Of a stretch of 48,455 bases of DNA, positions 10,605 to 44,890 are shown piece by piece. Every line of letters starts with the position of its first letter. The first letter of the stretch is position 1. A model generated the notes under the pieces. The model searched no databases. It saw only the letters and a program-made list of their open reading frames with translations, and was not told the origin of the DNA. Origin of the DNA: an uncultured Verrucomicrobiales bacterium (GTDB lineage Bacteria; Verrucomicrobiota; Verrucomicrobiia; Verrucomicrobiales; Akkermansiaceae); contig CALEOR010000139.1 in NCBI GenBank assembly GCA_937910245.1, forward strand, positions 1-48,455, in the 5' to 3' direction. The position numbers and the translations under genes were made by a program.

Positions 10605-10973
10605 TTACCCTTTCATCAAGAGCATCCTCACTCCCACCAAAATCAGCAGGATCGCAAAACCCTTCTGCAGCTGCGTATTCGACAAACTCCGCATCAAATC
10701 GGCACCAAACCACGACGCCACTGCGGCGCCCACCGCGGTCACCGCCACCACCCGCCAATCGATCAGATCGGAATTCACGGCATTATTGATCGTCCCCGAA
10801 AGCCCCGCAACCACCACCACCGCCAGCGAAGTCGCCACCGCCACCTTCTGGGTCATCCCCAGCGCCACAATAAATGCCGGCACCATAATGATCCCACCAC
10901 CGACTCCGCAAAGGGCCCCCACCAGTCCAGCAGCCGCTCCCACCAAGAGCCCCGTGATCAGTAATTTGGTCAT
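10605..10973 (-). CDS. Half-size (4-TM) TauE/SafE (TSUP) family permease
   Basis: I chose the start at MTKLLITG (ATG at 10973); the 49 codons upstream have no membrane character. The motifs GVGGGIIMVP and KVAVATS are typical of TSUP. The product is ~122 aa, against ~250 aa for canonical members. Confidence 0.7.
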   Translation of the reverse strand: MTKLLITGLLVGAAAGLVGALCGVGGGIIMVPAFIVALGMTQKVAVATSLAVVVVAGLSGTINNAVNSDLIDWRVVAVTAVGAAVASWFGADLMRSLSNTQLQKGFAILLILVGVRMLLMKG

Positions 10974-11176
10974 GCCCAAGATAGAAGGCCCACATGAGCA
11001 TTCCTGAAAGACCAAAAAACCACCTCTAGATCGGGCGTCGCACGTAATCACCCCTGTATGAGAAATAGCTCCAGTTTTTGTCCGTTCGCGAATTCCATCC
11101 CGGGCAAGCCCTTCAACCATCGTGCGCTCCTTCGCTCCGAAGAAGCGATGCCATCGATTTCAAAGGCAGGAGTTTG

Positions 11177-18599: not shown

Positions 18600-19139
18600 A
18601 TGAGCGGAGATTTAGACCCGGCTGCAGCAGCAGAGTTGCTCCCCCTGGTCTATGAGGAGCTGAAACGACTTGCCTCTTATCGAATGGCTCAAGAAGCCCC
18701 GAATCAGACTTTGCAGGCGACGGCCTTGGTCCACGAAGCCTATCTCCGGCTGACTCATACCGGTGAAGATCCACGTTGGCAAAACAAGGCCCACTTCTTC
18801 AGTGCGGCCGCTGAGGCCATGCGGAGAATTCTCATTGACCGGGCTCGCAAGCGAAACCGAATAAAGAATGGCGGAGAACTGAAACGGACTTTTTACGATC
18901 CATCCCAAATCGAAGCTCCGGCTGGCGATGGGGAATTGCTGGCCATCGACGAGGCTTTGGAGCGATTTTCCAAGATTGATCCCGAGGGTGCCGAGTTGGT
19001 CAAACTCCGCTTCTTTGTGGGGCTCACCCTGCAGGAAATTGCGGAGACCACCGGAGTCTCTCTCCGGACCGTCAAGCGCCACTGGGTTTATGCCCGGGCT
19101 TGGCTCAAGAAGGAATTACAGGAATCCGATTCTTCCTAA
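18600..19139 (+). CDS. ECF sigma factor, TIGR02999-like (kinase-associated type)
   Basis: A 179-aa ORF. It contains LLPLVYEELKRLASYRM, TLQATALVHEAYLRL, FFSAAAEAMRRILIDRAR and VKLRFFVGLTLQEIAE...SLRTVKRHW. This is the characteristic sequence of the Planctomycete/Verrucomicrobial ECF family found next to Ser/Thr kinases. Confidence 0.9.
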   Translation: MSGDLDPAAAAELLPLVYEELKRLASYRMAQEAPNQTLQATALVHEAYLRLTHTGEDPRWQNKAHFFSAAAEAMRRILIDRARKRNRIKNGGELKRTFYDPSQIEAPAGDGELLAIDEALERFSKIDPEGAELVKLRFFVGLTLQEIAETTGVSLRTVKRHWVYARAWLKKELQESDSS

Positions 19140-19373: not shown

Positions 19374-22300
19374 ATGTTTAAAAACGACCCCGACCAAAAC
19401 AATGACCCGGGAGCTGATGGCCTGAACGAAAAGGAGCTCTTCTTCTTGGCCCTGGAAATCGAAGACCCTGCCAAGCGAGCCATCTGGCTGAAGGAAGCTT
19501 GTGGCGGGGACGAGGGTCTCTACCAGCGTTTGGAAGGGCTTTTGGCTGCCGAAGCCACCGCAGGAATGGACTTCCTGAAGCCCGATGAAGATCGCCTCGG
19601 TGAAGTGGTCGCTGAGATTGGGCACGAACTCCGCACTGAAGTGGCCAATCCGGAGGCCGACACCCTTGGCGATGATCAGGATCAGGCGGCCACGGACCTG
19701 CCCGGAGTGGACTTCAACGAGAAACCCGGCGATACTATCGGGCGCTACAAGCTCCTGCAGAAAATCGGCGAAGGCGGCGGCGGCGTGGTCTACATGGCGG
19801 ATCAGACCCAACCGGTGAAGCGCCGGGTGGCCTTGAAGGTCATCAAGCTCGGGATGGACACCCGCCAGGTCGTGGCACGCTTCGAGGCCGAACGACAGGC
19901 CCTCGCCATGATGGAACATCCCAATATCGCGAGCATCCTTGATGCGGGAGCGACCGAGGGCGGACGGCCCTACTTCGTGATGGAACTGGTGCGCGGGGTC
20001 CCCATTACGACCTTCTGTGACGAACACAAGCTCGGCACCAGGGAGCGCCTCGAGCTCTTCCTGCAAGTCTGCGCGGCGGTGCAGCATGCCCATCAAAAAG
20101 GCATCATCCACCGCGACCTTAAGCCGGGCAACGTCCTCGTCACGATGATGGAAGACCGGCCCTTGCCAAAAGTGATCGACTTTGGAATCGCCAAAGCCAC
20201 CCACCAGGATCTGACCGAGAAGACCCTCTTCACGCAGCACGGAAACTTCGTTGGCACACCCACCTACATGAGTCCGGAACAGGCTTCGATGACCGGCTTC
20301 GACATCGACACCCGCAGCGACATCTACAGTCTCGGGGTCCTGCTCTATGAACTGCTGGCGGGCGCACCGCCCTTCGATCACAAGTCGCTCCTCTCCGCCG
20401 GCTACAATGAGATGCGGCGCATCATCGCGGAGGATGAACCGCCCAAGCCGAGCACCCGCTGCACCGAGACCCGGATCCAGTCAAAAACCGCGACCGGATC
20501 GAAGCCGATGAAATTCCACCTCAACCCCTCCTCCCTGAAGGGTGAGCTGGACTGGGTTGTGATGAAGGCCATCGAGAAAGACCGCACCCGGCGCTATGAA
20601 ACCCCGAATGCCTTTGCGGCGGATGTCGAGCGCTACCTAAAGGACGAACCGGTCCAGGCCGCCGCACCGAGTTCCGCCTACAAGTTCAGGAAGTTCGCGC
20701 TGCGCAACAAGACCGCCATCGGGGTGGTGGCAGGATTCGTTCTTATGTTGGTGATTGCAGTTGGCGTTAGCAGTTGGCAGGCGGTCCGGGCCATTCACGC
20801 GGGAAAGGAGTCGGAGAAAGCTCGGCGAGAGGCCGAGAGGGCGCGCGAAAGGACCGAGGATGTGTTGACCTATCTGACTGCGGTGCTCAAGAGTCCTGAT
20901 CCGGATTTTGATGGACGAAAAGTGACGGTGGCCGCGTGCCTTGCTGCTGCTGCCGATGAGTTGGAGATCCGCTTCCCGGATCAGCCGGAGCGCCAGGCGT
21001 TACTGCGGTCCGTGGTCGGGTCGACCTACTATTCCCTGGGGCTTTACCCCGAGGCCATCGAGCTTCAAGACGCTGCTTTGAAACATTTTCTGGAATCGCC
21101 TGATTCGGACCGGGTTGAAACGTTCGATGTGATGCACGAGCTGGCCGACTCCTATTATGCGGTTGGTCGTTGGAGTGAATCCTTGAAGCTGCGGGAGAAG
21201 GTCTTCGCCTTCCGTGGCAAGGTCCTTGGGGAAGCCCATCCCGACACGCTGAAGAGCATGTCCGAGCTGGCCGATTCTTATGCCGACATTGGACGAGAAC
21301 CGGAAGCTCTCAGGATGCGTGAGAAAGAACTGCTCCTGAGTCGGCAAACACTGGGTGAAGAGGACCCCCACACCCTTGGGGTCATGAGCCAACTCGCATT
21401 CTCCTACTCTTCCTTGGGTCGAAAGGCGGATTCGCTCGAGTTGCATTCGAAGGTCTTCGAACTGTCTAAGAAGACGTTTGGGGCCGAGCATGCAAGGACC
21501 ATGTCGGCGATGGGCAATCTGGCTTATTCCTATCACGCTGCGGGCCGGAGCGCAGAAGCACTGGAGTTCCGCGAGAAGGTGCTGGCGCATCATCGGGAAA
21601 AGTTCGGAGAGGAGCATCCCAGTACCCTCTTTGCGATGCATAGCCTGGGTTATTCCTACTATGGCGTCGGTCGCCGGAAGGAGGCCCTGGACCTGCGGGA
21701 AGAGGTGCTCCGACTACGTCGGGAGAAGCTTGGTCCCGTGCACGTTCGAACCCTGCGGGCGATGCGCAACTTGTCCCAAAGCTACAACGACATGGGCCGC
21801 CAGAAGGAGGCGCTCAAACTGGCTCACGAGACTCTGGACAAGTTTCGCGTAGCCCTCGGTGAGTCCGAGAAGGACACCCTTTTCGCGACAAGGAACCTGG
21901 TGGAAATCCTCCGAGACTCCGGGCAGCTGGACAAGGCGATTGAGCTCAGCGAGCAAGGCATCGAGTTGCACCGACGGAAGTATGAAGGAGAACATCCGGT
22001 CACTCTCCGGGCAATCGGCCAATTGGCGCTGCTCTACAGCGAAGCCGGTCGCCATGGGGATGCACTTGAAAAGGGAGAAGCAGTTGTGAAAGGCCTCCGT
22101 CGGAGTCTGGGCGATGCACGGCCCGCCACGCTGGAGGGTAGGGCAAGGCTGGCGACGATCCGTCGCAATGCCGGTCAGATCCCCGCCGCGATCGAGGAAG
22201 GAGTGGAGGTCTTGGCTCGGTGCCATTCGATGCTTGGCGCGGAGGCCCCCCGCACCCTCGAGGTGATGCGCAACCTGGCCCTTTCCTACAGCGCGGAGGA

Positions 22301-22622
22301 GCTCCATGAAGAGGCTCTTGAGCTTGGGAGTGAGGTCTTGGAATTGTTTGGTAAGGTCCTTGGGGAGGAACATCCAGATACCCTGGTGGCGATGGAAAAT
22401 CTGGCGGCGATGACTCAGAGCTCAGGGCTCCAAGAGGAGGCTGTGTCGATTCTGATAGAACTCCTGCCGGTAGCGCGCCGCCTACTCGAGCCCTCCCATC
22501 CTCTGCTGCCGGTCCTCATCGAGGATTTAGCCGATGGTTATGAAAAGACCGGGAACGATAAGGCTGCTCAGGAGCTGCGGAGTGAGCTCAAAGAATTGAA
22601 CGGGAAGCCTGCCGATGAATAG
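19374..22622 (+). CDS. Hanks-type Ser/Thr protein kinase, single TM, C-terminal TPR (TPR_12-like) sensor
   Basis: A 1082-aa ORF with kinase motifs GEGGGGVVY, VALK, HRDLKPGN, DFG and SPE. The TM helix is TAIGVVAGFVLMLVIAVGV. About 12 units of 42 aa follow, with EHPDTL...A..Y..GR..EA periodicity. Confidence 0.92.
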   Translation: MFKNDPDQNNDPGADGLNEKELFFLALEIEDPAKRAIWLKEACGGDEGLYQRLEGLLAAEATAGMDFLKPDEDRLGEVVAEIGHELRTEVANPEADTLGDDQDQAATDLPGVDFNEKPGDTIGRYKLLQKIGEGGGGVVYMADQTQPVKRRVALKVIKLGMDTRQVVARFEAERQALAMMEHPNIASILDAGATEGGRPYFVMELVRGVPITTFCDEHKLGTRERLELFLQVCAAVQHAHQKGIIHRDLKPGNVLVTMMEDRPLPKVIDFGIAKATHQDLTEKTLFTQHGNFVGTPTYMSPEQASMTGFDIDTRSDIYSLGVLLYELLAGAPPFDHKSLLSAGYNEMRRIIAEDEPPKPSTRCTETRIQSKTATGSKPMKFHLNPSSLKGELDWVVMKAIEKDRTRRYETPNAFAADVERYLKDEPVQAAAPSSAYKFRKFALRNKTAIGVVAGFVLMLVIAVGVSSWQAVRAIHAGKESEKARREAERARERTEDVLTYLTAVLKSPDPDFDGRKVTVAACLAAAADELEIRFPDQPERQALLRSVVGSTYYSLGLYPEAIELQDAALKHFLESPDSDRVETFDVMHELADSYYAVGRWSESLKLREKVFAFRGKVLGEAHPDTLKSMSELADSYADIGREPEALRMREKELLLSRQTLGEEDPHTLGVMSQLAFSYSSLGRKADSLELHSKVFELSKKTFGAEHARTMSAMGNLAYSYHAAGRSAEALEFREKVLAHHREKFGEEHPSTLFAMHSLGYSYYGVGRRKEALDLREEVLRLRREKLGPVHVRTLRAMRNLSQSYNDMGRQKEALKLAHETLDKFRVALGESEKDTLFATRNLVEILRDSGQLDKAIELSEQGIELHRRKYEGEHPVTLRAIGQLALLYSEAGRHGDALEKGEAVVKGLRRSLGDARPATLEGRARLATIRRNAGQIPAAIEEGVEVLARCHSMLGAEAPRTLEVMRNLALSYSAEELHEEALELGSEVLELFGKVLGEEHPDTLVAMENLAAMTQSSGLQEEAVSILIELLPVARRLLEPSHPLLPVLIEDLADGYEKTGNDKAAQELRSELKELNGKPADE

Positions 22623-28427: not shown

Positions 28428-29330
28428 ATGAAAGGACGCTTTATCCACGACGCCGGAGGCGAATCCTTCGAGCTTGAAGAACATAGTGCCATCGGCCGCA
28501 GTCCGGATTCCGTGGTCCCGGTTGCCGATCCACGGGCATCCCGACGTCATGCCGTCATCCGGCGTCAGGATGATGGCTTCTGGTTCTTCGACCTGGGAAG
28601 TAGCAATGGCAGCTACCTCAATGGCAGGCGGGTCACCACCGCACAGCTCTTGAAAAACGGCGATATGGTCATGATCGGCAACCATCAACTCCGCTTCGAA
28701 GGGACTTCTCTACCCGCAACCCAATCGAGCGCAACCCACTCGCAACAGACCATGATCGGGGTGCAGTCAAAGGACGCCCTCATCCTGGTGAGCGACATTC
28801 AGGGCTTCACCGCGCTCTCGGAGCAACTCTCCCCCGACGAACTCGCCCCCATCATGGGCTCGTGGTATGCCGCCATCGGCCTGGTCCTCGAGGAGCACGG
28901 TGCGACTCTCGACAAGTTCATCGGCGACTGCGTCCTCGCCTATTGGCTGAACACCGCCACACCGACCCGCCTCGCCGCCATGCATGCCGCCCGCGCCATG
29001 CAAAGGGTCGCCGACGAAGTTCAGCGAGATCACCGTGAATCCCTCGCCCGGGTTGACCTGAGTTTTAAAACCGGGGCCGCCATCCACCTTGGATCGGTCG
29101 CCTATGGCGCCATCAGTGCAGGTGAATTCACCCTCTTGGGAGACGCCGTCAATATCACCTTCCGCCTGGAATCCCTCACCCGCAATATCAACAAGCCCGT
29201 CCTCGTCAGCGGCGAATTCCTAACGGGATGGGACAGCGGCCAGGCTCTCTGCGACTCCTGTGGCTCGCATCAGGTCAAAGGCCGTGCCGAACCCGTCGAG
29301 GTCTTCTCTCTCGAACGCGCACCCGAGTGA
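28428..29330 (+). CDS. FHA domain-containing class III adenylate/guanylate cyclase
   Basis: A 300-aa ORF. The FHA core is IGRSPDS...ASRRHAVIRR...DLGSSNGSYLNG. The cyclase core is ILVSDIQGFTALSE...KFIGDCVLAYW...GDAVNITFRLES. Confidence 0.9.
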   Translation: MKGRFIHDAGGESFELEEHSAIGRSPDSVVPVADPRASRRHAVIRRQDDGFWFFDLGSSNGSYLNGRRVTTAQLLKNGDMVMIGNHQLRFEGTSLPATQSSATHSQQTMIGVQSKDALILVSDIQGFTALSEQLSPDELAPIMGSWYAAIGLVLEEHGATLDKFIGDCVLAYWLNTATPTRLAAMHAARAMQRVADEVQRDHRESLARVDLSFKTGAAIHLGSVAYGAISAGEFTLLGDAVNITFRLESLTRNINKPVLVSGEFLTGWDSGQALCDSCGSHQVKGRAEPVEVFSLERAPE

Positions 29331-29944: not shown

Positions 29945-32599
29945 ATGACCACTCCCGCCCAAGACCTCTTCGCCCAGGCCCACGACCTGGATCCCGACGC
30001 TCGTGAGGCCTTCCTTGCCAAAGCCTGTGGCGACGACGCCGAACTCCACCTCGAGGTCCAGCGCCTCCTCGTCGATGCCGAGAAGGCCCAATCCTTCTTT
30101 GCGGACACCGAAGGTGCCACCATCGGCGCCGAGGAATTCGACGAGACCTACACCGAGGCCGAGGGCGACGTCGTCGGCCCCTACACCCTGCGCCAACAAA
30201 TTGGCGAGGGCGGCTTCGGCACCGTCTGGATGGCCGAGCAAAGCGAACCCATCTCGCGCATGGTCGCCCTCAAGGTCATCAAGGCCGGGATGGACACCAA
30301 GCAGGTCCTCGCCCGCTTCGAGGCCGAGCGCCAGGCCGTCGCGATGATGGATCACCCCAATATCGCCAAAGTCCTCGACGCCGGTGCCACTTCCACCGGC
30401 CGACCCTACTTCGCGATGGAGCTCGTCAAGGGCATCCCCATCACCCAGTTCTGCGATCAGCAGAAGTTTGGCCCCAAACGCCGCCTCGAGCTCTTCCGCG
30501 ACGTCTGCGCCGCCGTCCAACACGCCCACCAGAAGGGCATCATCCACCGCGACCTCAAGCCCTCCAACATCATGGTCACCCTCGCCGCCGATGTCCCGGT
30601 GGTGAAGGTCATCGACTTCGGCATCGCCAAGGCCACCCAAAACAAGCTCACCGAAAAGACCCTCTTCACCCGCTTCGAGCAGTTCCTCGGCACCCCGGTC
30701 TACATGAGCCCCGAGCAGGCCGCGATGAGTGCGATCGACATCGACACCCGCTCGGACATCTACAGCCTCGGCGTCCTTCTTTACGAACTCCTCGCCGGTG
30801 CCCCGCCCTTCGATCAAAAGTCGCTCCTCTCCGCCGGTTACGACGAAATGCGCCGCATCATCGTGGAAGACGAACCGCCCAAGCCCAGTACCCGCTGCAC
30901 CGAGACCCAAGCCAATACCACGACCGGAACCGGATCAAAGCCCAGGAAATCTCATCTCAGCCCCAGCGCCCTGAAGGGCGAACTGGACTGGATCGTGATG
31001 AAGGCCATCGAGAAGGACCGCACCCGTCGCTACGAGACCGCCAACGCCTTCGCCTCCGACATCGGGCGCTACCTTTCCGACGAACCGGTGCAAGCCGCCG
31101 CGCCAAGTTCCACCTACAAGTTCAAGAAATTCGCCCGGCGCAACAAGGCCGCCTTTTCGGTGGCCGCCGCGATGCTCGTCTTGCTCCTCGCAGGCATCGC
31201 CACCACCAGCTGGCAGGCGGTGCGGGCCACGCAAGAGGCCGAACGGGCGACCCAGGCCGAGAAAAAAGCCACCGAAGAGAGCGAGGCCAAGACCGCAGCG
31301 CTCGAGGACGCCAAAGCGACCTCGAAGTTCCTGACCGACATGTTCAAGAGCTCCCGGCCCGGCGAGGAGAAGGGCGGGCGCAAGGTCAAGGTCGCAGAAG
31401 TCCTCGATCGGGCCGCGAAGCAACTGGATGACGACACCCAAATGCTCCCGAGAACGCGCGCAGTGCTGCAGGGGGCACTTGGAAAAACCTACAATGCCCT
31501 CGGGCTCTATCCACAGGCCATCCCGCTGCTGGAACAGGTATGGAAGTACTCCCTCGCAGCCCTCAGCCCGGAGCACCCCGACACGCTCGAGGCGATGGGC
31601 AACCTGGCGATTTCCTACCAGCGTGCCGGCCACCGGGTCGAGTCGATCAAAATTTTAGAGAAGGTGTTGCTGCTCCAGCGCAAAGTGCTCGACCCGGAGC
31701 ACCCCGACACGCTCAGATCGATGAACAGTCTGGCGCATTGCTACCACGCCGCCGGCCGCTGGGACGAGGCGCTCAAGATGCAAGAAGAGTTGCTGCCGCT
31801 GTGCCTGCAGGTGAGCGGCCCGAAGCACCCCGACACGCTCGTAGCAATGGCCTCCCTGGTGGAATCCTACTACTATGTAGACCGCCGGGACAAGATGCGC
31901 AAAGTGCTCGAGGAGCTGCTGCCGTTATCCAACGAGGTGTTCAAACCGGAGCACCCCTTCACGCTCCAGGCGAAGCGCGGCCTGGCGATTTTACACTCCG
32001 ATGCCGGCCGACTGGACGAGGCGATCAAGCTGGGCGAGGAGGTGCTGGCACTTTCCCTCAAGGCGGTTGGCCCGAAGCATTTCATCACGCTCCAGGTAAT
32101 GGGCTCCCTGGCGGATTTCTACTCCGATGATGGTCGCCGTGACGAGGCGATTAAGCTGGGCGAGGAAGTGCTGGCGCTTTCCCGCGAGGTGAATGGCCCC
32201 AAGCACCACAACACGCTCTCGATGATGAGCACTCTCTCAATCATTTACAACGATGCCGGGCGAAGCGCAGACGCGATCAAGCTCGGAAAATCGGGTCTCG
32301 ATTTGCATTTGAAAGTCATTGGGGAGAAGCACCCCGACACCCTCAATGCCATGACCAACCTCGCCATCTGTTATCAAGTGGCCGACCGCCTCAAGGAGGC
32401 CATTGCCCTGGAGGAAAAGGCGCTCGGGCTGAAACGTCGGATCCTTCGGTCCGGGCATCGGAAAACGATCGAATCGATGGACAACCTCGCCACCTACTAC
32501 GAGAAGGCGGACCGCAAGGAGGAAGCAAAGCCCCTCCGCGACGAGATCGCCAAGCTCAAAGCGGACGCCGCCAAAGCAACACCCCCGCCCACAGAATGA
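29945..32599 (+). CDS. Hanks-type Ser/Thr protein kinase, single TM, C-terminal TPR sensor
   Basis: An 884-aa ORF with kinase motifs GEGGFGTVW, VALK, HRDLKPSN, DFG and SPE. The TM helix is AAFSVAAAMLVLLLAGIATT. Eight clear 42-aa TPR_12-like units follow (EHPDTL...). Confidence 0.92.
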   Translation: MTTPAQDLFAQAHDLDPDAREAFLAKACGDDAELHLEVQRLLVDAEKAQSFFADTEGATIGAEEFDETYTEAEGDVVGPYTLRQQIGEGGFGTVWMAEQSEPISRMVALKVIKAGMDTKQVLARFEAERQAVAMMDHPNIAKVLDAGATSTGRPYFAMELVKGIPITQFCDQQKFGPKRRLELFRDVCAAVQHAHQKGIIHRDLKPSNIMVTLAADVPVVKVIDFGIAKATQNKLTEKTLFTRFEQFLGTPVYMSPEQAAMSAIDIDTRSDIYSLGVLLYELLAGAPPFDQKSLLSAGYDEMRRIIVEDEPPKPSTRCTETQANTTTGTGSKPRKSHLSPSALKGELDWIVMKAIEKDRTRRYETANAFASDIGRYLSDEPVQAAAPSSTYKFKKFARRNKAAFSVAAAMLVLLLAGIATTSWQAVRATQEAERATQAEKKATEESEAKTAALEDAKATSKFLTDMFKSSRPGEEKGGRKVKVAEVLDRAAKQLDDDTQMLPRTRAVLQGALGKTYNALGLYPQAIPLLEQVWKYSLAALSPEHPDTLEAMGNLAISYQRAGHRVESIKILEKVLLLQRKVLDPEHPDTLRSMNSLAHCYHAAGRWDEALKMQEELLPLCLQVSGPKHPDTLVAMASLVESYYYVDRRDKMRKVLEELLPLSNEVFKPEHPFTLQAKRGLAILHSDAGRLDEAIKLGEEVLALSLKAVGPKHFITLQVMGSLADFYSDDGRRDEAIKLGEEVLALSREVNGPKHHNTLSMMSTLSIIYNDAGRSADAIKLGKSGLDLHLKVIGEKHPDTLNAMTNLAICYQVADRLKEAIALEEKALGLKRRILRSGHRKTIESMDNLATYYEKADRKEEAKPLRDEIAKLKADAAKATPPPTE

Positions 32600-36802: not shown

Positions 36803-36837
36803 AAAAAAGCGAGCGCTCAATGAAGAGCGACCGCTTT
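36803..36837 (-). terminator. Rho-independent terminator for the thioredoxin-like gene
   Basis: The minus strand reads AAGCGGTCGCTC-ttcatt-GAGCGCTCGCTT-TTTTTG: a 12-position stem (10 Watson-Crick pairs, one G-U pair and one T/C mismatch). It lies 31 nt after the stop at 36868. Confidence 0.75.
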
Positions 36838-36867: not shown

Positions 36868-37593
36868 CTATTCGTCCTCAGTCTCTTCATCAGAGTCCGG
36901 GGATGCTTCCTTGATCAACTTCTGATCCGCTTCGGAAAGCTTGGCGATGGGATAGGGAATCTTTTTCCCATTCTTGAGCTTGAACATGACGTTCTCGCCC
37001 TCGATCGCGGTCACAGCCGCTACCAGGGGCTTGCCCTCGCTGTTGGTCCAGGTGCGCTGAGCGATGAGCGGCTTGGCAAAGAGACCACCGTCATCATCCT
37101 CATCCACAACTTCGACATCCTTGAGGGCCTTCTTGATCGCCTTGTCAAAATCAGGACTCATGGGATGCCCTTCAAAGACGAGCTCACCGCTCGCATCAAA
37201 CACAACGGAATGGGGAATGCCCTTCATATTGGGCGCACGAGTGGAGCCCTTCATGATGGGGTAATTGATCTTGTGCTCCTTCACGAGCTTTTCAATCGCC
37301 TCCACCGAACTGCTCTGAACCTCGGGAGCGAGAATGCGGAGTCCCTTTTTGCTATACTTTTTGTCCATCTTGACCAGATGGGGCATGGCGCCAATACAGG
37401 GGCCTCACTTGGTTCCCCAGTATTCGAAAACCACAACCTGACCCTTGAGGTCTTTCATGGTTACCTCTTCGCCCACTTGAACGGTGCCAATTTCCCAATC
37501 AGAGAGCTTGGCATCGGCAGCCTGGAGGGGCAGGCCCACCGAGGAAACAGCAAGAATTGCTCCGGCTGCAAAATGTTGTAATTTAATTCTCAT
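36868..37593 (-). CDS. TlpA/ResA-like thioredoxin-fold protein with SHD1-like C-terminal module; candidate selenoprotein (UGPC redox motif)
   Basis: Two adjacent same-frame ORFs (37405-37593 and 36868-37386) are separated only by TGA at 37405-37407. The joined product reads ...VVVFEYWGTK-U-GPCIGAMPHLVKMDKKY..., so the TGA replaces the first Cys of the canonical W-C-G-P-C. It has a signal peptide. The C-terminal WTNSEGKPLVAAV...FKLKNGKKIPYPIAKLSEADQ resembles SHD1. Confidence 0.7.
37365..37381 (-). promoter_or_regulatory. SECIS-like hairpin downstream of the in-frame UGA
   Basis: The mRNA reads CCAUCU-GGUCA-AGAUGG: a 6-bp stem and a 5-nt loop starting GGUC. The stem begins 23 nt after the UGA. 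Confidence 0.45.
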
Positions 37594-37798: not shown

Positions 37799-37893
37799 CG
37801 AGAAAGCTAAGTGCCAACCGCTAAAAGCGAATCGCCATGGTGCGTAGGGCCCTTCGCTCCGCCCCGATCCCTTGATCGCCCTGCCGGGCATCC
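37799..37893 (+). repeat. Copy B of the conserved ~100-nt intergenic element (candidate structured leader RNA)
   Basis: It aligns with 28251-28348. The hairpin here is AGCGAA...UUCGCU, against AGCCAA...UUGGCU in copy A, a compensatory C:G to G:C change. It lies ~90-185 nt upstream of the ATG at 37985. Confidence 0.5.
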
Positions 37894-37984
37894 TGCAAGT
37901 TCCTCCTCTGCAAACTCTCCAGAAAGAGGCACTCTTTCCAAAATCCTGCAAGCCGTCCTCTCAAAACTCATTCGATCATCCGCT

Positions 37985-39532
37985 ATGAAAAAACCCACCG
38001 TCTCCGATCTGTCACCCATCCCGGTAGAGCTCAAAAAAGATGAGACTTACTACTATTGCACCTGCGGAAAGTCTGCCAACCAACCCTTCTGCGACGGCTC
38101 GCACAAGGGCACCGATTTTGTCCCCCAATCATTCCAGGCGACAGAAGACGGCACCGCCTACCTCTGCCGATGCAAACAAACGGGAGGTTCCCCCTTCTGC
38201 GATGGCAGCCACAAACAAGTCCCTGACGAACAAAGAGGAAAAGAATTCGCCCTCGAGAAGTCGGGGGACGCCGACGCCATGCCCGAAGCCACCTCGACCC
38301 CGGAAGAGCCCACCGTCGCTTTCATCCACCAACTCGCCCGGGACGGCCTCTCGAAACTGGGCCACCACGGACCGATGGGCGCCATGGGCGTCCCAAGGAA
38401 AGATCTCCCCGACTGGAACGACATCCAAATCATGGTGGCGCAACTCCACCGCAAACCCCTCTTCGAAGATGTCGCGGTGGGCACCAAAGTCATCATCGGA
38501 CCCGAAGCCAAAAAGCCCCTCGAACTCGAAATCCCCCTCTTCGTCTCCGACATGTCCTTCGGCGCACTTTCCGAAGAAGCCAAAACCGCGATGGCCAAAG
38601 GAGCCGAATTGGCCGGCACCGGAATTTGCTCGGGCGAAGGCGGCATGCTCCCCGACGAACAAGAAGCCAACAGCCGCTACTTCTACGAACTCGCCTCCGC
38701 GAAATTCGGCTACCGGGAAGAGCTTCTCGCGCGCGTCCAGGCCTTCCATTTTAAATGCGGCCAGGGTGCCAAAACCGGCACCGGCGGCCACCTCCCCGGC
38801 AACAAAAATACCGGACGCATCTCGGAAGTACGGGGGATCCCCGAAGGACAACCGGCGGTCTCCCCACCCACCTTCTCTGACCTCAACACGGTAGAAGACT
38901 TCAAAAACTTCGGCGACCGCGTACGCGAAATCAGCGGAGGCATCCCGATCGGCTACAAGCTCAGCGCCCAGCACGTTGAAAAGGACATCGACTTCGCCCT
39001 CGCGGGTGGAGCCGACTACATCATCCTCGACGGTCGTGGCGGTGGCACCGGAGCCGCCCCCCTTTTATTCCGTGATCATATTTCCGTCCCCACCATTCCC
39101 GCCCTCGCCCGCGCCCGGCACCATCTCAACAAGGTGGGCGCCAGCGGACGAGTCAGCCTCATCATCACAGGGGGACTGCGCACTCACAACGACTTCGTCA
39201 AAGCCCTCGCCCTTGGTGCGGATGCCATTGCCCTTGCCAACTCGGCGATGCAAGCCATCGGCTGTGTCGGAGCCCGCATCTGCAACACCAACCTGTGTCC
39301 TGCCGGCATTGCGACCCAGAAACCGGAACTCCGCAAACGTCTCAAAGTGGACCACGCCGCCAAGCGTCTTCAAAACTACCTCGAGGCCACGACCGAGCTG
39401 ATGCAGGTCATGGCCCGCGCCTGCGGCCACAATCACCTCAACCAATTTAATAAGAACGACCTCGCCACCTGGAAAAAAGAAATGGCGGAAATTTCAGGCA
39501 TCGAATTCTCCGGACTGGATCTGGAACGATAA
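37985..39532 (+). CDS. Fusion protein: tandem CDGSH iron-sulfur domains plus glutamate synthase-type FMN domain (GltB domain 2-like)
   Basis: I chose the start at MKKPTVSDL; the longer ORF from 37811 runs through the non-coding repeat. There are two CDGSH motifs (CTCGKSANQPFCDGSH and CRCKQTGGSPFCDGSH). GltS-type FMN-domain blocks follow (GEGGMLPDE, KCGQGAKTGTGGHLPG, IILDGRGGGTGAAP). Confidence 0.85.
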   Translation: MKKPTVSDLSPIPVELKKDETYYYCTCGKSANQPFCDGSHKGTDFVPQSFQATEDGTAYLCRCKQTGGSPFCDGSHKQVPDEQRGKEFALEKSGDADAMPEATSTPEEPTVAFIHQLARDGLSKLGHHGPMGAMGVPRKDLPDWNDIQIMVAQLHRKPLFEDVAVGTKVIIGPEAKKPLELEIPLFVSDMSFGALSEEAKTAMAKGAELAGTGICSGEGGMLPDEQEANSRYFYELASAKFGYREELLARVQAFHFKCGQGAKTGTGGHLPGNKNTGRISEVRGIPEGQPAVSPPTFSDLNTVEDFKNFGDRVREISGGIPIGYKLSAQHVEKDIDFALAGGADYIILDGRGGGTGAAPLLFRDHISVPTIPALARARHHLNKVGASGRVSLIITGGLRTHNDFVKALALGADAIALANSAMQAIGCVGARICNTNLCPAGIATQKPELRKRLKVDHAAKRLQNYLEATTELMQVMARACGHNHLNQFNKNDLATWKKEMAEISGIEFSGLDLER

Positions 39533-42145: not shown

Positions 42146-44890
42146 ATGAAACCGCCATCTGCCCGAGATCTCTTCGCCCGCGCTCTTGATTTAAATCCGG
42201 ACGATCGAGATTCTTTTCTGGCCGCAGAGTGTGGGAAAAACGCCGAGCTCCGCCTTGAGGTCCAACGCCTTCTGGTCGATTCCGAGAAGGCTCAGTCCTT
42301 CTTTTCCGACGAAGACGGGGCCACCATCGGAATGGAAGAATTTGACGACACCTTCACCGAAGCAGAGGGCGACGTCGTCGGCCCCTACACCCTGCGCCAA
42401 CAGATCGGCGAGGGCGGCTTCGGCACTGTTTGGATGGCCGAGCAAAGCGTGCCCATCTCTCGCATGGTGGCGCTCAAGGTCATCAAGGCCGGGATGGACA
42501 CCAAGCAGGTCCTCGCCCGCTTCGAGGCCGAGCGCCAGGCCGTCGCGATGATGGATCACCCCAATATCGCCAAAGTCCTCGACGCCGGTGCCACTTCCAC
42601 CGGCCGACCCTACTTCGCGATGGAGCTCGTCAAGGGCATCCCCATCACCCAGTTCTGCGATCAGCAGAAGTTTGGCCCCAAACGCCGCCTCGAGCTCTTC
42701 CGCGACGTCTGCGCCGCCGTCCAACACGCCCACCAGAAGGGCATCATCCACCGCGACCTCAAGCCCTCCAACATCATGGTCACCCTCGCCGCCGATGTCC
42801 CGGTGGTGAAGGTCATCGACTTCGGCATCGCCAAGGCCACCCAAAACAAGCTCACCGAAAAGACCCTCTTCACCCGCTTCGAGCAGTTCCTCGGCACTCC
42901 GGTCTACATGAGCCCCGAGCAGGCTGCGATGAGCGCGATCGACATCGACACCCGCTCAGACATCTACAGCCTCGGCGTGTTACTTTACGAACTGCTGGCA
43001 GGTGCGCCGCCCTTCGATCAGAAGTCACTCCTCTCTGCCGGTTACGATGAGATGCGCCGCATCATCGCAGAGGACGAGCCTCCCAAACCCAGCACCCGCT
43101 GCACCGAGACCCGGATCCAGGCAAGCACCGCGACGGGCACCGGATCGAAGCCGAAGAAATTTCATATCAGCGCCAGCGCCCTAAAGGGCGAACTGGACTG
43201 GATCGTGATGAAGGCCATCGAGAAGGACCGCACCCGGCGCTACGAGACTGCCAACGCCTTCGTGGCCGACATCGAGCGCTACCTCGATGACGAGCCGGTG
43301 GAGGCCGCCGCGCCAAGTACCACCTATAAGTTGAAGAAGTTCGCGCGGCGAAATCGGACTGCAGTTGCTTTTGCCACCACGATCACCGTTCTCTTGATTG
43401 CGGGGATCTTCGGAACCACGTGGTTTGCGCTGTCCTCTCAGGAGGCCCGAATCGATGAGAAACAGGCCAAGGAATACGCACTTAAGAGCGGGGAAGAAAC
43501 CAAAAAGGCCCTCGAGCGAACTAAAGTCGCATTAAATCAATCCCGCTACGAAGAAGCCAAAACCTGGTTGGAAAGAGCGCGACTGGCAATAATGCAGAAG
43601 AACAAATTCGCGGCCGCCATGATGGCCGCGAAAGGCTTGGGATTTCGAGGATTTGGTGCGGAGCGGCAGACCGAGGAGTTCCGGAAAGCCAATCCGGTGC
43701 TCCTGGAGAAAGAGAAGCCGGAATTCGAGGAGCTCATGCAAATCGCGATGGACGGCAACGTTCCGTGCCGTCCAATTTGGCGATCTCCTCTTGGCTCGCA
43801 TAAAGAAAGGGTCTCCACAGTGACCTTCAGCCCGGATGGCGCCACCCTCGCCAGCGGAAGTTGGGATGAGACGATCAAGCTCTGGGACCTCTCGAGCGGA
43901 AAGGAGATCCGAACCTTCGGGCACCAAGACACGGTCATGAGTGTGGCCTTCAGCCCGGATGGCAGCACCCTCGCCAGCGGGAGTGGGGACGGGACGATCA
44001 AGCTCTGGGACCTCTCGAGCGGAAAGGAGATCCACACCTTCGGGCACCAAGACCTGGTCTTGAGTGTGGCCTTCAGCCCGGATGGCAGCACCCTCGCCAG
44101 CGGGAGTGCCGACAAGACGATCAAGCTCTGGGACCTCTCGAGCGGAAAGGAGATCCACACCTTCGGGCATCAAGACAGGGTCATGAGTGTGGCCTTCAGC
44201 CCGGATGGCAGCACCCTCGCCAGCCGGAGTGACGACAAGACGATCAGGCTCTGGGACCTCTCGAGCGGAAAGGGGATCCGCACCTTAAGGCACCAAGACT
44301 TGGTCAGTAGTGTGGCCTTCAGCCCGGATGGCACCACCCTCGTCAGCCGGAGTTACGACAAGACGATTAAGCTTTGGATTGTGGACAACTCACCGCCCGA
44401 TCTGGCAGGCTACCTCGATCCCCGAAATCCCTGGTACCGACTTGAGGGATCAGGGATTTCCTTGAATTCCCAAACCGGCGATCGACTTGTGGATAGGGAA
44501 CCGCAGTTCCTGAATGTTTCTCCCGTCAGCCATGTGGGCATCCTCCACAGCACCCGCTCGCCGGAAAAAAAGAACCGCGCTCTCTTTTGGAATTATCTGC
44601 ACGCCGGGAACTGGAACAGCGCCGGGGTTCTGTATGCGCGCTTGACCGACCCAGCCTCAAAAGAATCAGCCCGGGAGATGACCGTTCTGAGACGCGCGGC
44701 CAAGGCGCAATCCGCCTTCGACGGCGGACTCTACCGTCATGCCAGGTGGCACCTGGAAGAGATCACTCCGCTGTTGAAGCCCGATGAAACCGATCCAGCG
44801 ATGTTGAGAGCGAAGGAGCTGATCGAGCGATTGAAAGACGACTTGGATCAACGCGAGGCCTCCGACGGTCGGAAGGATTCGCCAAAGTAA
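42146..44890 (+). CDS. Hanks-type Ser/Thr protein kinase, single TM, C-terminal WD40 sensor
   Basis: A 914-aa ORF. The catalytic domain is identical in amino acids to that of the 29945 kinase over ~245 residues. The TM helix is VAFATTITVLLIAGIFGTTWF. A coiled region follows, then ~4.8 WD40 repeats (VAFSPDGSTLASGS.D.TIKLWDLSSGKEI.TFGHQD) and a ~165-aa tail. Confidence 0.92.
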   Translation: MKPPSARDLFARALDLNPDDRDSFLAAECGKNAELRLEVQRLLVDSEKAQSFFSDEDGATIGMEEFDDTFTEAEGDVVGPYTLRQQIGEGGFGTVWMAEQSVPISRMVALKVIKAGMDTKQVLARFEAERQAVAMMDHPNIAKVLDAGATSTGRPYFAMELVKGIPITQFCDQQKFGPKRRLELFRDVCAAVQHAHQKGIIHRDLKPSNIMVTLAADVPVVKVIDFGIAKATQNKLTEKTLFTRFEQFLGTPVYMSPEQAAMSAIDIDTRSDIYSLGVLLYELLAGAPPFDQKSLLSAGYDEMRRIIAEDEPPKPSTRCTETRIQASTATGTGSKPKKFHISASALKGELDWIVMKAIEKDRTRRYETANAFVADIERYLDDEPVEAAAPSTTYKLKKFARRNRTAVAFATTITVLLIAGIFGTTWFALSSQEARIDEKQAKEYALKSGEETKKALERTKVALNQSRYEEAKTWLERARLAIMQKNKFAAAMMAAKGLGFRGFGAERQTEEFRKANPVLLEKEKPEFEELMQIAMDGNVPCRPIWRSPLGSHKERVSTVTFSPDGATLASGSWDETIKLWDLSSGKEIRTFGHQDTVMSVAFSPDGSTLASGSGDGTIKLWDLSSGKEIHTFGHQDLVLSVAFSPDGSTLASGSADKTIKLWDLSSGKEIHTFGHQDRVMSVAFSPDGSTLASRSDDKTIRLWDLSSGKGIRTLRHQDLVSSVAFSPDGTTLVSRSYDKTIKLWIVDNSPPDLAGYLDPRNPWYRLEGSGISLNSQTGDRLVDREPQFLNVSPVSHVGILHSTRSPEKKNRALFWNYLHAGNWNSAGVLYARLTDPASKESAREMTVLRRAAKAQSAFDGGLYRHARWHLEEITPLLKPDETDPAMLRAKELIERLKDDLDQREASDGRKDSPK
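43799..44390 (+). repeat. Tandem 123-bp (41-codon) WD40-coding repeats, ~4.8 copies
   Basis: Repeat units start at 43799, 43922, 44045, 44168 and 44291. Units 2 and 3 differ at only ~7 of 123 nt, and the differences cluster in two codon patches. Confidence 0.9.

Follow-up and report, generated by a model that had tools for sequence, protein, structure and literature searches.

A candidate exported selenoprotein with a ResA/TlpA-like thioredoxin fold and an SHD1-like module in marine Verrucomicrobiales

The window considered here is the whole 48,455-nucleotide stretch of contig CALEOR010000139.1 from an uncultured Verrucomicrobiales bacterium of the Akkermansiaceae (assembly GCA_937910245.1). 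Comparison with related sequences indicates that positions 36868-37593 of its minus strand very probably form a single gene for an exported selenoprotein, in which an in-frame UGA is used as the selenocysteine (Sec) codon. The complete gene comprises 241 codons including Sec63, and between its ATG (37591-37593) and its TAG stop (36868-36870) the sole in-frame stop is the TGA at 37405-37407. An initial annotation, made from the letters of the window, had noticed that the minus-strand open reading frames (ORFs) 37405-37593 and 36868-37386 belong to one shared frame split only by this TGA, which is the case, and had proposed a candidate selenoprotein in a genome of the Planctomycetes-Verrucomicrobia-Chlamydiae (PVC) type. 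The lineage, Verrucomicrobiales, agrees with that proposal, and the selenoprotein reading is supported by the conservation of TGA or Cys at the site and by a co-varying hairpin found only in the TGA forms. When read through, the 241-aa product contains ...KGQVVVFEYWGTK-[TGA]-GPCIGAMPHLVKMDKKY..., its N-terminal stretch being MRIKLQHFAAGAILAVSSVGLPLQA/ADAKLSDWEIG...VVVFEYWGTK-U-GPCIGAMPHLVKMDKKY..., and the predicted tryptic peptide across the Sec site includes U-GPCIGAMPHLVK.

Conservation of the UGA codon and of the coding sequence around it

In public annotation, the gene is split into two 'hypothetical proteins' of 62 and 172 aa, relatives are annotated with the same split, and the family is entered at NCBI as truncated 'hypothetical proteins'. 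A protein search in which U was replaced by C retrieved 48 close relatives, about 45 of which are 150-180 aa long and start at MPHLV, which means that their annotation is cut short at one and the same point. The same set includes three full-length relatives with Cys at the site, reading WGTRCPPC, WGVNCGPC, and WGVRCPPC. Homologous DNA came from a single scan each of species-representative genomes and of metagenomes, and the genes of the three full-length Cys proteins were retrieved separately. At the codon corresponding to 37405-37407 (residue 63), TGA is found in 33 family loci, representing 21-22 distinct sequences with 45-89% amino-acid identity, and TAA or TAG in none. These loci originate from Verrucomicrobiales/Akkermansiaceae metagenome-assembled genomes, one single-cell genome, and TARA and other marine assemblies, and the TGA form is carried by CP144259.1 (GCA_054490745.1, Verrucomicrobiaceae bacterium 227), a complete genome that hosts the family member P0019, as well as by GCA_048267005.1 and GCA_029213265.1. 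Five loci for which DNA was available have Cys (TGC or TGT) in the UGA column, namely L009 and L042, which come from the genome and metagenome scans and carry TGC, and P0018, P0021, and P0028. The codon is thus conserved as either TGA or Cys, and the gene is not generally disrupted there, an outcome that the initial annotation had named as capable of refuting its reading.

The U-G-P-C redox motif (37396-37407, minus strand) corresponds to the CxxC with which helix 1 of the thioredoxin fold begins. The initial annotation had described a contiguous W-C-G-P-C motif with the TGA at the attacking cysteine. The first part does not stand, since the sequence reads W-G-T-K-U-G-P-C with Trp three residues upstream of the UGA, whereas the second part does, the TGA being located at the attacking Cys of CxxC in the alignment with the five Cys homologues and ResA. 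A wider view is given by a profile search of 1.84 billion cluster representatives (50% identity), which yielded 51 relatives at E <= 1e-30. Among them, about 25 full-coverage matches are truncated at MPHLV and are presumed to be of the Sec type on that ground, whereas about 17 are full length, with C-x-x-C at the site in 14 and the motif lost in 3. The Cys-type representatives, of the form WGxxCxxC, come in addition to the five Cys loci. Counted in clusters at 50% identity, the presumed Sec form is therefore commoner than the Cys form in this ResA-like family (about 25 versus about 14). The three full-length representatives without the redox motif (P0129, P0131, and P0139, with SxxC or no Cys) keep the fold and the SHD1 module and are possible non-catalytic derivatives.

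The public annotation corresponds to an alternative in which two separate genes are present, the TGA being the true stop of a 62-aa secreted peptide and the 172-aa ORF starting at the ATG 37384-37386. Gene callers annotate the split in every genome, and an ATG stands 18 nt past the TGA in 20 of the 21 distinct sequences. This arrangement is nevertheless very improbable. Substitutions among the TGA forms are distributed over codon positions 1, 2, and 3 as 26, 19, and 54% upstream of the TGA and as 31, 19, and 50% downstream, a third-position bias on both sides showing that both pieces are translated in one frame and under purifying selection. The six codons (18 nt) from the TGA to the annotated downstream ATG are themselves conserved as GPC[IL]xx, resolving Cys included, and this ATG is replaced by ATT in L008 and L041, so that independent initiation at this point cannot be the rule. 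Moreover, the Cys-type homologues are single uninterrupted ORFs, and the stop, where present, is invariably TGA. Finally, neither piece makes sense alone, as had been argued from the start: by Pfam and by structure modelling, the signal peptide and strand 1 lie upstream of the UGA and the rest of the thioredoxin fold lies downstream, neither piece being a complete fold.

A lone in-frame stop in one window also looks like a sequencing or assembly error, or like a recent nonsense mutation that would make the gene a pseudogene at 37405-37407. This explanation is effectively refuted. Two assemblies made independently from near-identical strains, L104 with 3 nt differences and L105 with 11, keep the TGA, which excludes an assembly error, and the codon recurs in 33 diverged loci, flanked on either side by sequence under purifying selection.

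Two observations concern individual codons and loci of the family. The codon before the UGA (37408-37410 in the window, and the homologous codons) is CGG in 14 of 21 distinct sequences, with a synonymous identity of 0.87, and the codon after it is mostly GGC; these flanking codons may constitute a preferred context for Sec insertion. In the TGA-type locus L044, a 1-nt deletion at about 2150-2200 affects a CCCC run on the 5' side of the hairpin described below and shifts the frame after GPCISAM, which reflects either an assembly error or a true pseudogene.

A SECIS-type hairpin linked to the UGA codon

A hairpin of the selenocysteine insertion sequence (SECIS) type is located at 37365-37381 on the minus strand, with a 6-bp stem (CCAUCU/AGAUGG), a 5-nt loop (GGUCA), and a folding energy of -8.3 kcal/mol. 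The initial annotation had placed CCAUCU-GGUCA-AGAUGG 23 nt after the UGA and within the 16-37 nt range of bacterial SECIS (bSECIS) models. Both statements are accurate, the hairpin (37381-37365), encoded within P-H-L-V-K-M-D, starting exactly 23 nt after the UGA, with 29 nt from the UGA to the loop. In the published bSECIS model, the loop counts 3-9 nt with G in position 1 or 2, the stem 4-16 bp, and the UGA-to-loop distance 16-37 nt, with a minimum free energy of -7.5 kcal/mol or lower (PMC13188914). The window hairpin falls within the model on all four of its criteria, with its 5-nt loop, 6-bp stem, GG at loop positions 1 and 2, and 29-nt distance at -8.3 kcal/mol.

Taken on one sequence alone, such a hairpin is within chance, and its significance rests on comparative data. 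With 22 distinct TGA-type sequences, RNAalifold predicts exactly the 6-bp helix, and standard pairs occupy all 132 of the 132 hairpin cells (100%), as against 19-42% when the partner columns are slid. The loop is GGUCA or GGUUC among these sequences. Two compensatory pairs were observed. In L002, L024, and L025, U-A becomes C-G through a His codon change (CAT to CAC) together with a replacement of Met (ATG) by Val (GTG), pairing thus being preserved through an amino-acid change; in L038, C-G becomes U-A. U-G wobbles occur only at synonymous or conservative sites. The constraint is also visible in codon choice, synonymous codon identity reaching 0.75 at the hairpin codons versus 0.50 at 64 other testable codons (Mann-Whitney p = 0.002). 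For instance, CTG is the sole codon for the Leu at position +10 (21 of 21 sequences), while a second invariant Leu is encoded by four different codons.

None of the five Cys-type genes has the hairpin. Even L101, a Cys-type gene that encodes nearly the same peptide (IPHLVKLD), does so with CCG CAT CTC GTG AAA CTG GAC, which cannot pair. The structure is thus tied to the TGA and not to the protein sequence.

In E. coli fdhF, the SECIS is likewise a short coding-region hairpin located past the UGA, and its loop starts with GGU(C). Compared with it, the window hairpin has no bulged U, has a stem of only 6 bp, and is without a conserved lower helix. By analogy with fdhF, SelB-GTP-Sec-tRNA(Sec) bound to the GGU-containing loop, in the hairpin 23 nt downstream, would supply Sec at UGA-63 instead of termination.

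Fold, domains, and relation to known proteins

The protein begins with a predicted Sec-type (secretory) signal peptide at residues 1-25 (37519-37593, minus strand), recognised by inspection as MRIK, a hydrophobic core, and LQA/AD; an equivalent N-terminal hydrophobic leader was seen by the same means in all full-length relatives. It is followed by a thioredoxin-fold domain of the ResA/TlpA/redoxin type at residues 38-141 (37171-37482, minus strand), identified by Pfam, by sequence matches in the PDB, and by Foldseek. Over these residues, the Pfam AhpC-TSA and Redoxin profiles score 43.4 and 36.2 bits, both above their gathering thresholds, and an invariant cis-Pro loop G-I-P-H (I126, P127) aligns with the LPT loop of ResA. 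The structure of the Cys homologue P0018, predicted by AlphaFold with the family alignment (predicted local distance difference test, pLDDT, of 90), consists of a thioredoxin fold, a disordered linker, and a confident four-strand beta domain with a C-terminal helix. Foldseek relates this model to ResA/TlpA-like reductases at E ~1e-9, with a target-normalised template modelling (TM) score of ~0.7.

The C-terminal part, residues 180-230 (36904-37056, minus strand), is an SHD1-like module with an SH3 fold, preceded by an acidic linker and followed by an acidic tail. Although the window protein itself scores 18.0 bits with Pfam SHD1 (PF03983), below the cutoff of 23.7, 22 of the 29 members of the family match this profile at E < 0.01, with 2.5e-7 as the best value, and P0018 exceeds the cutoff with 24.1. 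The initial annotation had likewise described an SHD1-like module there. Extracellular bacterial proteins are reported to contain SHD1, a module with an SH3 fold (PMC5906684).

By its thioredoxin fold, its CxxC position at the start of helix 1, and its cis-Pro loop, the protein belongs to the TlpA/ResA-like superfamily. Its best matches are ResA (Bacillus), TlpA (Bradyrhizobium), and CcmG-DsbE, as seen with the NCBIfam ResA subfamily (57 bits), ResA entries of the PDB, and Foldseek, and it shares with them the export signal, the CxxC position, and the cis-Pro loop. It differs from ResA and TlpA in having Sec for Cys and an extra SHD1, and its equivalog scores are far below cutoff (NF002854, 57.4 bits versus 170; NF047696, 35.7 versus 230). 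It is thus a member of the superfamily and not an orthologue, and an assignment to ResA or TlpA proper was rejected. In the surroundings of the gene, no cytochrome-maturation or CcdA/DsbD genes are present. A peroxiredoxin was also discarded, the PxxxTxxC(U) motif being absent, as EYWGTK-U-GPC, a motif of the CxxC type, lacks Pro at -7 and Thr at -3. The same applies to the selenoprotein-specific NCBIfam families WAxxUGC_long (25.3 versus a cutoff of 300) and redoxin_TUGYCR (14 versus 100). The closest solved relative by sequence is the 161-aa 'Redoxin domain protein' PDB 28db (E 3e-22), which shares FEYWGxxCPPCIxxMPHL and the GLPH loop with the window protein but has Cys instead of Sec and a deposited chain without SHD1.

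UxxC thioredoxin-fold proteins form the largest class of predicted bacterial selenoproteins. They have long been known from genomes and marine metagenomes, and include the Prx-like thiol:disulfide oxidoreductase, Prx-like 1-3, Trx-like, and DsbA-like proteins as well as UGC-containing proteins of the TlpA family (PMC1088965, PMC2398784, PMC13188914). With the Prx-like/TlpA-like UxxC selenoproteins (PF00578/PF08534/cd02966; 'Prx-like 1/3' from the GOS (Global Ocean Sampling) data; PMC13188914), the window protein has in common the AhpC-TSA/Redoxin-type thioredoxin fold, Sec where CxxC has its N-terminal Cys, a bSECIS shortly downstream, many Cys homologues, and a marine metagenome source; it differs by its C-terminal SHD1 and its Verrucomicrobiales lineage. 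GOS Prx-like 3 is also a fusion, but with the Cys-rich domain 'Unknown_3' in place of SHD1. In the Sargasso Sea, the 'thiol-disulfide isomerase-like' selenoprotein is, as here, an exported-type thioredoxin-like UxxC protein from marine metagenomes (Zhang et al. 2005, PMC1088965), but it belongs to another family, with the motif DW-U-TWC and no relationship in the sequence downstream. The family motif EYWGTR-U-GPC...MPHLV was not found in the searched parts of the GOS and Sargasso sequence supplements. In the literature searched for selenoproteins of free-living Verrucomicrobiota or for the Sec trait in Verrucomicrobia, nothing specific was found. The window protein adds to the known UxxC thiol-oxidoreductase selenoproteins and is a modest extension that will not surprise specialists.

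The working model proposed here, which is conditional as regards Sec insertion, export, redox direction, substrate, and the role of SHD1, is as follows. After export and cleavage of the signal peptide, the product would act as a periplasmic ResA/TlpA-like thiol-disulfide oxidoreductase. Sec would be the attacking residue of U-G-P-C, its selenolate being the nucleophile that would form a selenenylsulfide with Cys66 or with the substrate. In Sec/Cys pairs, Sec gives higher reactivity and resistance to irreversible oxidation, and here it should make the thiol/selenenylsulfide exchange with the substrate faster and more oxidation-resistant. SHD1, carried on its flexible acidic linker, would most likely dock or tether the enzyme to a partner or substrate.

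UGA decoding, a second candidate family, and gene surroundings

Several results weigh against the use of this UGA as a Sec codon. Neither the 48-kb window nor some 435 kb of related loci yielded selA, selB, selD, or tRNA-Sec: ARAGORN returned no tRNA-Sec in the window, which holds no tRNA, or in 46 related loci; Pfam scans of about 35 window ORFs revealed no sel genes; and tblastn with E. coli SelB and SelD sequences as queries gave no matches in the window or the ~435 kb. A scan for in-frame TGA in UxxC/CxxU context found no credible second selenoprotein candidate in the window and no other credible one in the 435 kb of loci, a recurring 'GGM-U-YRCG' match being rejected as an artefact from antisense or intergenic sequence upstream of a DUF3592 gene. 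As regards the hairpin, the folding z-score of the 81-nt region against shuffles is -0.92, a hairpin conforming to the same criteria follows 5-6% of the window's 1641 TGA trinucleotides, and Rfam, scanned both at its gathering threshold and with E up to 10, returned noise only (SpR20, mir-202). Covariation is restricted to two pairs because the hairpin is nearly invariant, and the base of the hairpin stands 23 nt from the UGA versus 11 nt in E. coli fdhF. Finally, the gene neighbourhood, which is not conserved between clades, offers no pointer to a substrate or functional partner.

The failure to find sel genes or tRNA-Sec in the window or the ~435 kb of related loci would also suit a UGA that is decoded, but not as Sec, either by a lineage-wide reassignment to Trp or Gly or by a hairpin-stimulated near-cognate read-through inserting Trp or Cys. 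UGA-to-Trp reassignment does exist in Verrucomicrobiota, but the reassigned verrucomicrobia on record are exclusively tiny-genome endosymbionts of ciliates (PMC13462651). The window, in contrast, has a G+C content of 56%, and TGA is the ordinary stop of 8 of its 30 well-supported genes, which indicates no code change. Furthermore, the site is the catalytic Cys of CxxC in the homologues, a classic Sec/Cys pair, and Trp or Gly at this position would abolish the redox site. The hairpin, for its part, fits the SelB-type bSECIS model with a conserved GGU loop. Such non-Sec decoding is accordingly judged highly unlikely, and Sec remains the preferred reading of the codon.

A second candidate selenoprotein family of Verrucomicrobiales, comprising L052 and 43 relatives, combines a signal peptide, the motif ...VYTDPGTT-U-GPC..., and a C-terminal SHD1. 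Its in-frame TGA is located at 2048-2050 in L052, 9950-9952 in L106, and 9884-9886 in L107; in most homologues the annotation is cut short at one point, and P0066 (NTTCGLC) is a homologue of the Cys form. The UGA is followed, at a distance of 11 nt, by a hairpin whose AGUUC loop is invariant and whose stem changes in ways that maintain or strengthen pairing. The N-terminal domain has no Pfam match and gives a low-confidence thioredoxin-like model with weak Foldseek matches (E ~1e-3), while the SHD1 part is modelled at pLDDT ~97. That a second, unrelated family carries a similar loop (AGUUC, compared with GGUY) makes Sec decoding in Verrucomicrobiales more credible, as it then does not depend on one gene family. 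Together, the ResA-like and L052/P0066 families suggest a theme of SHD1-tethered selenoproteins. It is tentatively conceivable, though on balance doubtful, that marine Verrucomicrobiales possess a previously unrecognised selenium-dependent extracytoplasmic redox system, with at least these two exported thioredoxin-fold UxxC families ending in SHD1. If true, the shared SHD1 would suggest docking of both families to a common envelope partner or substrate class.

More generally, the SHD1-like 'WTNxxGK' module occurs widely among PVC bacteria as an extracytoplasmic module (L011-L022 and L050-L096; e.g. L017, L019, L020, L057, L061, L064, L066, and L074). Its observed fusion partners are PSCyt1-type CxxCH domains, Trx-like 'APEWCGYC' domains (in Pontiella), and an unassigned N-domain of about 215 aa ending ...KSTL.

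As for its surroundings, the selenoprotein gene looks monocistronic. A terminator-like hairpin with a T-run (36804-36829, minus strand) lies 39 nt past the stop codon, and the flanking genes, one convergent and one divergent, are on the opposite strand. The divergent neighbour (37811-39532, plus strand) fuses two CDGSH iron-sulfur zinc fingers to a glutamate-synthase-type flavin mononucleotide (FMN) domain; it is adjacent to the selenoprotein gene in the near-identical strain L104 too, but not in more distant clades. Elsewhere in the window, three large genes on the plus strand (19374-22622, 29945-32599, and 42146-44890) encode Ser/Thr protein kinases with TPR or WD40 repeats. The off-frame read-outs 'SPASRPSARPSR/WITPISPKSSTP' recur at 30345 and 42549, which points to near-identical paralogous N-terminal segments of the kinase genes. 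An extracytoplasmic function (ECF) sigma factor (18600-19139) and an FHA-cyclase (28428-29330) are encoded near them. Lastly, the match of a 171-aa ORF at 10605-11120 (minus strand) to the TauE/SafE sulfite-exporter profile is confined to the C-terminal half of that profile (positions 130-237); the ORF may have a miscalled start or be a truncated gene.

Current understanding is not overturned by the gene described here. Its first consequence concerns annotation, dozens of orthologues, plus the second family, being deposited as pairs of truncated 'hypothetical proteins', NCBI genomes included. The compact and highly conserved 17-nt SECIS, with its natural compensatory variants, would be useful for tests of SelB specificity, and the recurrent fusion to SHD1 provides a handle on the binding targets of bacterial SHD1 domains. 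In biological terms, the range of predicted Sec use now takes in an abundant marine lineage of the PVC group, and the envelope of the cell instead of its cytoplasm.

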